In this document: piece after piece, positions 5,912 to 17,900 of the stretch
How the letters are laid out: the number at the start of each line of letters is the position of its first letter
How positions within the stretch are numbered: position 1 is the stretch's first letter
NCBI RefSeq assembly: GCF_032062105.1
Contig: NW_026935111.1
Span: 1 to 62,942 of the forward strand
Length of the DNA stretch: 62,942 nucleotides
DNA from: Saccostrea cucullata
Taxonomy: Eukaryota
Direction of reading: 5' to 3'
Notes under the pieces: model-generated
The model's input: the letters and a program-made list of their open reading frames with translations, nothing else
What the model was told of the DNA's origin: nothing
The model's database searches: none
Translations under genes and position numbers: made by a program

Positions 5912-7136
5912 TTAGACAAGCATTATGTCTATACGTTTTATGAAAATATTTTATTCTGTAAGGAAATGTATTCTGTCTTTACAGCACAGGGTACAATTGT
6001 AAAGATCTACAATGTCTCTGTCAAAGTACACGTCCACAACAGACAACAAACCTGGCACGTCTCGCCAGACTTATTCTGGGTCCTTGTACAGATGTGTTAC
6101 GTGACATTCTCAAAAAGGAAATCCCTCCCTCTACCTTATCAAGGCCATTTAAGGCGTGGATTGATCACCTTAAAAACCAGAATGCAAAATGTCCTCTTAC
6201 AAAACAACAGACAGTCAGATATCATTTTCCCGCCTTCTACAAAACAATATGGCGGAAATTATTCAGACTTTGACGTCACATTTCTATATTTACTTTTACG
6301 AAACGTGTACAACATAACAGAACATGCGGCGGGATGGGGAAATCAGCCTCAACCCGGGGATAGAAGTGTGTCTGCTAACATTGAAAGACTTCGACTGATC
6401 AGGAACAAATACTATGGACACGCGTCAAATTTCTCCCTAGCTGATCGGAATTTAGACAAGAATGGCGGAATGTTCCTGACATAATCGTTGAGTTAGAGTG
6501 TTACCGTGGAACAACCACGGCTTTTTAGGACTCTGTTAACGAAATCAAAACGTGCTCGATGGATCCTGATTTGGAGCAAAAGTACATCTATTATTAGGTA
6601 AACTTTTAGTGATTGGCGAATTACAAAACACCGTCGAAAACCTTTCAGAGGTAACTATCGTTTATTGGAACCGGGAGATATTAAACTGTAAGGTATTGTT
6701 TTACTGTCCATTCCTAGTTAATTTCAATTTATTTGCATGTAAAATTTGGTTGTGATTAGTGTTGGCAACGAGTACCCGGTTAACCGGTTAACCGTCGAAC
6801 GTTGCGAGTATCGGTTAGTAAAACTGCTATTCGGTTACTCGGATAAAATAAATTCTACATAGTAAAGGTATAGAAAATGAATGTTTTATCATTTATAAAT
6901 TTATACTAAGTTACACATTTCCCTAATTTTAGGTACCGTTAGACTTGATCTAGGGTATAGTTGTAGTGAATCAAATTACTTTGATTAGTTTTCACAGTTT
7001 CTTTAATTAATAGCTTTGATTGCTTGGGGTTTACATAGTTTGAAGGCCTGCGTTATAATTACCTTAATTGATAATTTAACGAGACACCGCCAGAGACATA
7101 ATAAGCTTGGAGTTCTAACAAAAAAAACCCAGCTGA

Positions 7137-7265
7137 TTCAAGTTCAAGTTCGAGTTCTTTATTGACTTTGAGCAATATAGCTCATCAGTACAAACAAATA
7201 CAAACATGACTGTACAGGTTTACAGGAGAATATGGTAATTATGTACATATGAAACATATATATTG
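7137..7265 (-). mobile_element. 3' tail fragment of a CR1/L2-type LINE
   Basis: The minus strand reads AATAAAgaactcgaacttgaacttgaa, i.e. a polyA signal plus a short tandem tail. The far boundary is approximate. Confidence 0.5.
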
Positions 7266-14900: not shown

Positions 14901-17900
14901 TTGTCATAGAACAAACCCGCTTACTTGTTCTCAATTGTTATGGGGGTGATGTGAATACTGTTAAGATCTTACTGAAACATGTCGATTTAAACTACTCAAT
15001 CAACAGAACGCCACATGTCTACTCTCATTGGGCAGTGCCTAGGGGAACTGAAAAAATACCCCTCTTCATGTTTATTTGGTCATGTTTCTGTTGTAAATGA
15101 GTTGATAGGTGTAGGAGCTGATGTTAACAAACTGGGTCATAGTCATACACCACTGACAGCAGCATGCAGTGCTGGACATTTGAGTGTTGTGAGAGAACTT
15201 TGCAAAATGGATGCAAATGTCAATTTAGAGTGTAATTTCGATACACCACTAGTAAAAGCATGCAAAGGTGGATATTCAGGTATTGTAAAGGAGCTGATTA
15301 CTTGTGGAGCTTCAACAAATTTAGAGTCTGCAAGTAATTTACCACTTATAGCTGCATGTGAAAATGGACATCTAAATGTAGTACAAATATTGCTGCAATC
15401 AGGGGCCATTGTCAATCAAAAAAAGGATTTCAATAACCCTCTGATATCTGCATGTAGTTGTGGTGAATTGGTTATAGTGAGGGAACTTTTAAAAGCTGGG
15501 GCCAACATTAATTTACAATGTGGAAGTATATGTACAATGGATGCATTGACAGCTGCATGTAAAGGAGGACACATTTCTGTGGTGACAGAACTACTGAAGA
15601 AAGGAGCAAAAGTTAATCCTCAGGGTCTGTATGATTCACCATTAAATGCTGCATGTCGTGAAAATCATTCCGATGTAGTCATTGAACTGCTACGAGTTGG
15701 GGCCGATGTCAATTCATTGCGTTTGACCGGTACAGCACTGATAAATGCATGTTCAAGAATTCATCCAAATTTGTCGTTAATAAAAGAACTTCTTGAAGCA
15801 AAAGCTGATGTCAACCAGCAAGATGATGATGGGAATACACCATTATTAAGTTCTGTTTTCGAAAAAAGGATAAAAGTTTAATAAAATATCTAATTGAGGC
15901 TGGTGCTGATATCAATCAACACAATAAAGAATGGTATACACCACTGACTGCTGCTTGTTTAGATGGAGATTTAAACCTTGTGAGAGATCTTCTTGAAATG
16001 GGGGCTTCGGTTAATCCACAGCAAATATGGATTGATCGTTTAAAATATATACAGATGGTTCGATTAATCGCATCTTCTTTCGGCATTTACATCAATCCAG
16101 AGACAATTTCGGGGTTCCTAGCGAATGGACCGGGTTATCATCATACAACACCACTGACAGCTGCATGTCTAAATGGCAATCTGATCATGGTGAGAGAACT
16201 GCTTCAAAAAGGGGCTGATGTTAATCCAAAGTATGTATGGAAAACACCATTAATTACTGCTTGTAAATGTAGACGATTGGATGTTTTGAAGGAATTGCTG
16301 AAATTTGGAGCCAAAGTCAATTTCAATCCTTGGCATCCAAGGAAACCAAATAAATACAAAACACCGTTGACAGTTGCCTGTAAGAGAGGAAAATTAGAAA
16401 TGGTTAAAGAGCTTTTGAATGCAAAAGCAGTTGTTAATCCACAGGGTGCATATAATACACCATTGGTAGCTGCGTGCACAAATGGATTCGGAGATGTGGT
16501 GAAAGAGAATTACTTAAAAAGGGGGCTGATGTCAAACTACAGAGTAGATATAGCACTCCACTGACAGCTGCATGTAAAGGGGGACATTTGAATGTAGTGA
16601 AGGAGTTGATAGAGGCTGGAGCAGACGTCAATTTACACCATGATGCTGATGAAGATAATATGCCACTGATAATATCATGTAAGTATGGAAGCATAAATAT
16701 TGTAAAGGAACTGATTGAAGCGGGGGCTGATGTTAATTTACAGGGTAAATATAGCACTCCTCTGACTGCCGCATGCCATTTGGAAAATGTTGATGTTGTA
16801 AAAGAACTATTAAATGCTGGAGCTCAAATCAATCGAAGCACATTATGGAATACGCCTTTGATAGCAGCATGTACAGGGCATAATGCAAACACAGTGAAGG
16901 TGGTGCTTGAAGCTGGTGCTAACGTCAATTTACAAAATCAAGAAGGGGAGACGGCGCTGTATAAGACAGTCGATAGCGAGAATCCATCCATCATTGTATT
17001 GAAAATGCTTGTCGAACGCGGTGCTGATTGTACAATTTGTACAAAATCTGGAATATCACCTTTATACCATACATTAATTAACAACAAGATGAATATTTTT
17101 AAGTTCTTTAAAAAATCAGAAAATAAACAACAGCAAATTAGAAAAAATCTGCATTTGTTCACCATACTAAGAGATATTAGGCATGCGGACGTGGCGACTG
17201 ATAGTAAGGATGATGTGGTGTCAACGAAGAAACTAATGTGGGATCTAAAAAGTAATTTGCACGAAAAATTACTTCAAGCTGACTGTTATGTTTTAAATCA
17301 TTTGCTGCATATCGGTCTTGATTCCAACCAAGATATTTTTATTCGCCAGAAACCAAAACAGTCGGATATCAAACCCTTACTTTTCAGAGTTATTGATGGC
17401 GATTTATTTTTAAATCATAATTCCATATGCCACGAGAAAACAGTAAGCATTTTACTTGATGCCGGAGCAGATGTTAATGTGAGGGTCAAATACACAGAGT
17501 ATAACCGTTTAGTTGACAGCGAGGGTTTGTCCGCTTTAGAGAGAACAAACAAACTGATATATGAAAACAAACATTCCAAAATAGATCTCTTCTATAAGAG
17601 AATGAAGGTACGTGAATATCGAAAGTGTTTAAAAGAAATCAAGAAATATGTCAGAAGATACTCCATATGATTTGACTACAGGTAATTAACTTCTGAATAG
17701 CCATCCCCAACTGACAATGTTAAATTAGATTTTCAAATGATGTTTGATTCACTTCTCTGACCGACTGACAAAAACTGGTCCATCTCTAATGCTTTTTACG
17801 TTTCAAGACAAAATATTTTTATTCATTTCGTCATCTAATCCCGTAAACAAATTTGGTGAAATCTGGAAAGAAAATGGGGACTTACCTACCGACCCAATAA

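Follow-up and report, generated by a model that had tools for sequence, protein, structure and literature searches.

What kind of protein is encoded where a HEPN nuclease domain, a STAND nucleoside triphosphatase (NTPase) and a long ankyrin array stand in a row in an oyster genome, and is the copy at hand still alive? The question is raised by a gene at 6012-17670 (plus strand) of contig NW_026935111.1 of Saccostrea cucullata, of which positions 1 to 62,942 were analysed (hereafter the window). A first-pass annotation had proposed an innate immune receptor with ribonuclease (RNase) output, present here as a dead copy. By the architecture of its sequence the gene belongs with NLR- or Avs-like receptors, being neither a canonical NLR, nor Avs, nor RNase L; the open-frame members of its family are probably NLR-type intracellular immune receptors with RNase output, while the window copy itself is a pseudogene.

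Three Pfam domains, all above their curated cut-offs, follow one another in the order HEPN_DZIP3, nSTAND3 and about 20 ankyrin repeats, as claimed in the first pass for an effector, a switch and a sensor: (i) HEPN_DZIP3 (PF18738) at 5852-6481 (65.6 bits versus a cut-off of 27, E 5.5e-18), (ii) nSTAND3 (PF20720) in two pieces at 13213-13440 (34.0 bits) and 13444-13716 (27.5 bits; cut-off 27.2), and (iii) Ank on three open reading frames from 14991 to 17667 (E 1e-30 to 1e-43). An ankyrin repeat profile built from the family matched 22 times across four frames of the window, a few of these matches being incomplete or interrupted by frameshifts, and 20 times in the open exon of the neighbouring gene L001. 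The nearest Atlas cluster for the NTPase is nSTAND3 of Mollusca (score 0.98), and the Pfam lists give nSTAND3 and ankyrin without the NACHT, NB-ARC or LRR domains of canonical NLRs.

Exon 1 (6012-6650, plus strand; Pfam, alignment to exon 1 of L001 and translation) covers HEPN_DZIP3 and the start of a helical linker and is broken; an in-frame stop lies immediately 5' of its ATG (6012). The Rx5H motif RNKYYGH (6401-6421) is unaltered in sequence but out of frame with this ATG. Exon 2 (12834-12875) is a remnant aligning with the 45-nt phase 1-1 linker exon of L001, the peptide of which is also present in the RefSeq models P0001 and P0002. Exon 3 comprises the STAND module (13214-14250; nucleotide-binding domain (NBD), helical domain and winged helix, delimited by Pfam and the L001 model) with Walker A GVPESGKS (13333-13356) and Walker B VFVINI (13465-13482), a helical region linking switch to repeats (14251-14990), and about 20 ankyrin repeats with a C-terminal cap in three frames (14991-17670, ending with TGA 17668-17670).

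An open-frame counterpart lies directly upstream. L001 (G000:C17934:7495-13397, minus strand of that contig) stops about 370 bases ahead of the window, and by contig overlap positions 1-290 of the window (plus strand) form its 3' flank. AG acceptors and GT donors delimit its three exons, which encode HEPN (622 nt), linker (45 nt) and NTPase plus ankyrins (4475 nt), and the frame remains open through all of them (1713 amino acids). Contig C17934 overlaps window positions 1-7131; four further family copies lie on it, all oriented alike, one of them no more than an NTPase remnant with stops. The window copy terminates this tandem array.

The fold of the switch was addressed with the L001 NTPase module modelled separately (mean predicted local distance difference test, pLDDT, 92.3), since a search with the whole protein had returned ankyrin proteins only. 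The ten best matches among 48,161 chains are all STAND proteins (Z 11.7-14.8, 254-308 residues aligned): NOD2 (Z 14.8, root mean square deviation 4.3, 298 aligned), MalT (14.6), NLRP3 (three entries; 13.6), NLRP9, NRC2 (13.0), an archaeal STAND, NLRP1 and SAMD9. Several of the top matches are resting-state structures, and the top Foldseek matches (template modelling scores 0.44-0.49) are likewise NLR-type STANDs. As modelled, the NTPase module has the STAND fold over its full length, with P-loop, helical domain and winged helix. In the complete model of the relative P0122 (mean pLDDT 84.9), a helical HEPN leads through a long helix to the NTPase module, after which come a helical region and the ankyrins; the sequence of P0175, searched against solved structures, matched nothing below E 0.6.

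Genome searches with short HEPN and NTPase queries yielded at least 150 scored matches each, out of 784 and 310 candidates, respectively. Completeness was counted on the best 92 of the 150 NTPase rows, with E 1e-13 as the limit and the 58 weaker rows set aside; 44 of the 92 have open frames of at least 900 amino acids. Several remoter nSTAND3 matches also lie 2-4 kb downstream of HEPN matches. Across the family the three-exon structure is conserved, introns measure 1-15 kb and arrays run head-to-tail. All three Pfam domains are found in 64 of 120 listed homologues (hand count); where a HEPN start is recognisable, 53 of 59 proteins begin at HEPN and 6 carry N-terminal extensions, and an in-frame stop lies immediately 5' of the ATG in 4 of the 6 window-clade copies checked.

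The proposal of a bivalve family fits the distribution of the proteins. Searched at E 0.001, a set of 50%-identity representatives yielded 1124 proteins, and ten of these, looked up individually, come from oysters (7), Mytilus (2) and Tegillarca (1); the closest named proteins among the listed homologues belong to Saccostrea, Ostrea and Magallana oysters. P0231 of Mytilus californianus carries CARD in place of HEPN, and P0277 of M. coruscus is HEPN-nSTAND3-ankyrin, which by sequence points to an effector swap between CARD and HEPN on a common nSTAND3-ankyrin core. This core also occurs in P0011, P0068, P0111, P0019, P0231 and P0233 with a hydrophobic N-terminal segment, Ig, fibrinogen-C or CARDs upstream; the fibrinogen-C fusion may be a mis-joined gene model.

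Splicing of the HEPN exon to the NTPase exon, on which the first-pass reading depended, was recovered in a relative. Ten of the 15 listed members of the P0112 Logan cluster, all of one gene, were examined: four run from exon 1 into the intron, three from the intron into exon 3, and three are joined HEPN-linker-NTPase-ankyrin proteins. These forms probably represent genomic and spliced contigs of the same gene. In the joined forms a short linker peptide sits where exon 2 is expected, P0122 was found on 6 contigs, and six further Logan proteins continue from HEPN into the NTPase. Effector, STAND module and repeats are thus united in one spliced chain in the relative, but not in the window copy. 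In case of L001, sequencing runs suggest transcription: contigs of two runs, the RNA status of which is guessed, tile its exons, and the listed piece of one contig stops precisely where exon 3 begins. Among the datasets listed, none of RNA shared half of the L001 sequence words, and the L001 reads from 4 of 24 runs are mostly less than 95% alike and so stem from paralogues or other lineages.

Conservation of the catalytic motif, likewise expected from the first pass, is nearly complete, Rx4-6H being found in 91 of 93 anchor-bearing proteins (from 180 in total, isoforms included). Two motif types occur family-wide, RNKYYGH (Rx5H; 41 proteins) and RNQCVH-like (Rx4H; 50 proteins); some models, P0012 among them, pair an Rx5H HEPN with an NTPase of the Rx4H group, which hints at exchange of effector exons. 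Among 94 aligned relatives of the NTPase, the Walker A lysine is kept in 93, the two Walker B acids in 88 and 94, respectively, and the sensor-1 arginine in 94, Walker B mostly reading VFVIDD. In a Saccostrea clade with support 1.0, formed by one S. echinata model, four S. cucullata models and L001, Walker B reads VFVIND instead; as ND clade members were noted L001, L002, L003, L005, L006, L007 and P0002. ND also occurs in two unrelated branches, where P0033 and P0065 acquired it independently. For the ND state the sequences themselves were consulted; some Walker B labels on the tree (FV, xx) are script offsets.

Substitution patterns differ between the modules. Omega is 0.16-0.20 for the NTPase of the ND clade, indicating purifying selection, 0.12-0.47 for the HEPN exon (58 non-independent pairs), and, from six disjoint pairs, 0.22 (0.18-0.25) for the NTPase and 0.34 (0.29-0.39) for the ankyrin framework. 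HEPN and NTPase are under purifying selection and the surface positions of the ankyrin repeats change fast. Per-position omega values above 1 were rejected as evidence, since the pairs are not independent and the synonymous divergence (dS) per position is noisy.

The window copy departs from this conservation in each of its exons. The frame from the ATG ends after 30 codons upon translation, therefore RNKYYGH is never reached; relative to L001, five indels shift the frame of exon 1 (86% identical), which also contains one TAG (6526). The last bases of exon 2 and its GT donor are deleted, both here and in contig C13199. Exon 3 (89% identical) contains the premature stops TAG 13441 and TGA 14422, the latter within the helical region together with several indels, and shows 15 frameshifting indels in the alignment to L001, some of which cluster in a poorly aligned stretch; one frameshift lies near 13710. 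Walker A has G>E at a position that is G in all 94 aligned relatives, and the second acid of Walker B has D>I where all 94 have D. The first acid is N also in open-frame members of the clade. The first-pass annotation was therefore right about the dead copy and about Walker A, but its loss of both Walker B acids reduces to one: D>I is the sole lesion there, the preceding N being inherited by the clade, as judged from the alignment. C13199 carries both premature stops of exon 3 as well as G>E and D>I, lacks the exon-2 donor as the window does, and may also share reads with the window. C17934 was rejected as an independent witness of the exon-1 lesions; with a single base of difference from the window across exon 1, it probably represents the same haplotype.

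The two halves of exon 3 match different contigs. Window positions 13214-14750 are 97-100% identical to C13199 and, over most of the stretch, 82-86% identical to C22695, while 15070-17062 are 99-100% identical to C22695 and 70-83% to C13199, which puts a mosaic breakpoint at about 14750-15070. Over the latter stretch the ankyrin frame of C22695 is open (1067 amino acids), which, together with the nearly complete matches to two contigs, means that the window gene may be a haplotype-switch mosaic and that some indels in its ankyrin region may be assembly errors. Sequence comparison thus marks the window copy as a mosaic, arisen either from an assembly haplotype switch or as a true recombinant. 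That the assembly joined a dead HEPN-NTPase haplotype to the ankyrin half of another haplotype has a nearly even chance and is compatible with the reading of the family as receptors: the left part follows C13199, which is collinear with window positions 7486-26836, the right part follows C22695, and three other contigs overlap parts of the gene. However, C13199 and C22695 are only 77-84% alike near the breakpoint, and six paralogues analysed without the window and L005 yield a recombination signal of their own (264 sites, p 0.001, PHI-type test), making a real recombinant plausible, even if mis-assembly or clustered homoplasy could mimic such a signal. Either way, the lesions leave the HEPN-NTPase half dead. 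L005 (G000:C22695:1-5400) has a rearranged NTPase half 96-99% like L001 and an ankyrin half 99-100% like the window, and may be a fusion through unequal crossing-over.

The design of the family is already on record in bivalves, and its stand-alone three-exon form in oysters is large. A HEPN+nSTAND3+Ankyrin string is contained in the Figure 4 source data of Kaur et al. 2021 (PMC8195603), the alignment list of which uses nSTAND3 for the STAND domains that go with TRADD-N proteins of bivalves. Two Crassostrea virginica proteins listed there (XP_022306070.1, XP_022308753.1), TM+Cys-rich+TM+TRADD-N+HEPN+nSTAND3+Ankyrin, have the same module in the same order; the C. virginica rows (six, from two genes) are, however, membrane-anchored, whereas the window's clade starts at HEPN and stands alone, and the accessible parts of that paper do not describe such a stand-alone expansion. 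Pinctada fucata HEPN(DZIP3)-NACHT-LRR/TPR/WD40 proteins (more than 50 HEPN-NACHT proteins, RNase activity inferred from Rx4-6H; PMC9646362) and cnidarian HEPN-NACHT proteins (17-83 in anthozoans; PMC8260672) likewise combine an N-terminal effector of the same HEPN family, a STAND switch and a repeat sensor, and resemble the present family, in the portions available, in tandem expansion, haplotype variation and a proposed RNase role. They carry NACHT, in contrast to nSTAND3 in the window family, and the word ankyrin is absent from the main text of PMC9646362. According to the available text of PMC3710099, DZIP3-type HEPN is also fused to ankyrin and NACHT and expanded in oyster. The first-pass remark that such receptors are not characterised accordingly holds for function but not for architecture, given the string in PMC8195603 and the HEPN-NACHT-repeat receptors with predicted RNase (PMC9646362, PMC3710099). 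The literature search, with subscription journals mostly outside, turned up no publication that treats the stand-alone family or what it does, nothing on a HEPN-nSTAND3-ankyrin family in the accessible text of PMC11817969, no mention of six Magallana family gene ids and, by title among the matches listed for the term nSTAND3, none on bivalves.

Two further systems invite comparison. RNase L has an ankyrin-first order and senses 2-5A. Pfam lists of the window and its relatives contain no kinase or KEN family. Like RNase L (PMC3710099, Table 1), the window family unites ankyrin repeats and a HEPN-type, here predicted, RNase within a single chain, but the HEPN of RNase L is of the KEN family and a kinase-like domain takes the place of STAND, so that the likeness drawn in the first pass stands as an analogy and, with HEPN family, order and switch all different, not as kinship. 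In Avs5 (AVAST type 5), too, nSTAND3 serves as the switch, preceded by an N-terminal effector with enzymatic activity and followed by a sensor of C-terminal repeats (bioRxiv 10.1101/2025.07.08.663546), and Avs5 structures match the NBD of the L001 model at Z 10.4-10.5; unlike the window family Avs5 is, in the parts of the preprint available, prokaryotic, with a Sir2 effector and TPR/Sel1/PPR repeats. No Avs profile of PADLOC matched at E 0.01, the present gene being an intron-containing animal gene and not a bacterial Avs; PDC-S73 matched on the NTPase (E 1e-10 to 1e-14), besides weaker NTPase matches and ankyrin models.

How would such a receptor work? HEPN active sites form by pairing. In the resting state the protein would be closed and autoinhibited by its ankyrin repeats; a ligand, presumably pathogen-derived, bound at the ankyrin face would trigger nucleotide exchange, switch the STAND module on and lead to oligomerisation, which would pair the N-terminal HEPN domains into a composite RNase site, and the ensuing RNA cleavage would cause cell death or removal of viral RNA. 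Autoinhibition, oligomerisation, HEPN pairing, cleavage outcome and pathogen ligand are all transferred by analogy from STAND and HEPN biology, the relevant behaviour being treated in PMC8195603 (section 19) and PMC3710099 (section 16). A mode of action of this kind has been proposed for HEPN-NACHT proteins (PMC9646362, PMC3710099). Birth-and-death turnover, as in an immune gene family, would be consistent with the large number of broken copies.

Several findings weigh against this reading. Open frames fall below 600 amino acids in 37 of the 92 close NTPase matches, and at least 36 of the 92 have a scored HEPN upstream on the same strand within 30 kb (with 150 of 784 HEPN candidates scored), compared with 6 for the downstream control and 5 for the control on the other strand. 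The joint between exons 1 and 2 of L001 is not among the joints shown, 28 more lying outside the listing. ND for DD in the window's clade may alter the switch. Positive selection on the ankyrin surface, for which the first pass proposed a test, is not demonstrated: at pre-chosen surface positions omega is 0.92 (0.78-1.07; six disjoint pairs) and does not exceed 1, and relaxed constraint explains the figure as well as diversifying selection does. Finally, the literature search yielded no RNase, ATPase, ligand or infection data on any member. A 'Dzip3' induced by OsHV-1 in the accessible part of a preprint (bioRxiv 10.64898/2026.05.15.723513) was not used, its gene identity not being established.

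It is conceivable, if unlikely, that the STAND switch is real but HEPN binds RNA or scaffolds without cutting, or that the ND clade forms a non-hydrolysing sensor or decoy beside DD partners. The missing activity data and the ND state itself, kept with support 1.0 in two Saccostrea species by protein names, would suit this alternative, as would the proposal of inactive STANDs as sensors (PMC8195603, section 19). Yet R and H are retained in the 91 of 93 proteins, the ND clade included, the NTPase of this clade evolves under purifying selection, and a Walker B Glu-to-Gln mutant of Avs5 was still protective, according to the available text (bioRxiv 10.1101/2025.07.08.663546). A non-immune role is rather improbable; examples would be RNA turnover set off by stress, control of transposons in the germline, or discrimination of self from non-self among cells. 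Fungal repeat-sensor NLRs do serve allorecognition (PMC13449251, as accessible), and infection data linking family genes to pathogens did not turn up in the literature, but lineage-specific expansion, frequent gene death, CARD/HEPN swapping and variable repeat surfaces resemble immune receptors. That the cassette is a selfish mobile element multiplied by transposition is very improbable: the at least 150 scored matches to either query and the descent of STAND ATPases from transposase-linked ATPases (PMC8195603, section 19) are outweighed by three conserved exons with introns of 1-15 kb in head-to-tail arrays, by Pfam lists free of transposase domains, and by the one element found with terminal inverted repeats sitting in intron 1 and being absent from L001.

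This element (6757-12602, no strand assigned) is a 5.8-kb insertion with 12-bp terminal inverted repeats and an 8-bp target-site duplication GTTGTGAT, and accounts for the length of intron 1. The empty site was located in L001. Genome G000 contains 242 exact copies of the element's 29-nt 5' end, versus 0 for the reversed control; from the pattern of inverted repeats and target-site duplication we take it to be a hAT-like DNA transposon. Repeats are nested within it: one sequence has a second copy at 5347-5914, around 10540-10710 lies a long hairpin, and around 11750-11970 a short tandem array.

Further features of the window lie on the minus strand. Over 31800-40000, exons encode Ig I-set and fibronectin type III domains (Pfam for three of the exons), in a gene that presumably resembles a neogenin/DCC-type receptor. 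At 55145-60561 a long terminal repeat (LTR) retrotransposon has open gag (523 amino acids) and pol (1293 amino acids; protease, reverse transcriptase, RNase H and integrase) frames, in what we take to be a Ty3/gypsy layout. Behind pol, an open frame of 344 amino acids (53828-54862) with C2H2-like Cys/His spacing matched no Pfam family at E 0.001 and is possibly an accessory frame of the retrotransposon.

Dead and possibly mosaic, the window locus adds little alone, but it leads to a large family with clonable open-frame members, L001 and P0122, the latter seen spliced. Many RefSeq models of this family are named 'ankyrin-2-like' or 'phosphatase 6 regulatory subunit', and under such names expression studies can overlook it. 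Disease resistance in oysters is a further matter on which the family may bear. Direct nuclease output by animal NLR-type receptors, of the kind that bacterial Avs proteins have, is a prediction made from motifs alone in the accessible text of PMC9646362 and PMC3710099. Tentatively, one may speculate further that oysters possess dozens of stand-alone cytosolic Avs5-like receptors which, through a built-in RNase and needing neither caspase nor adaptor, kill infected cells or disarm them, which renew their specificity as ankyrin cassettes recombine among tandem copies, and of which one clade has retained, across Saccostrea species, an ND switch of altered hydrolysis. If true, an animal receptor of NLR type would act directly through a nuclease and have its sensors shuffled.

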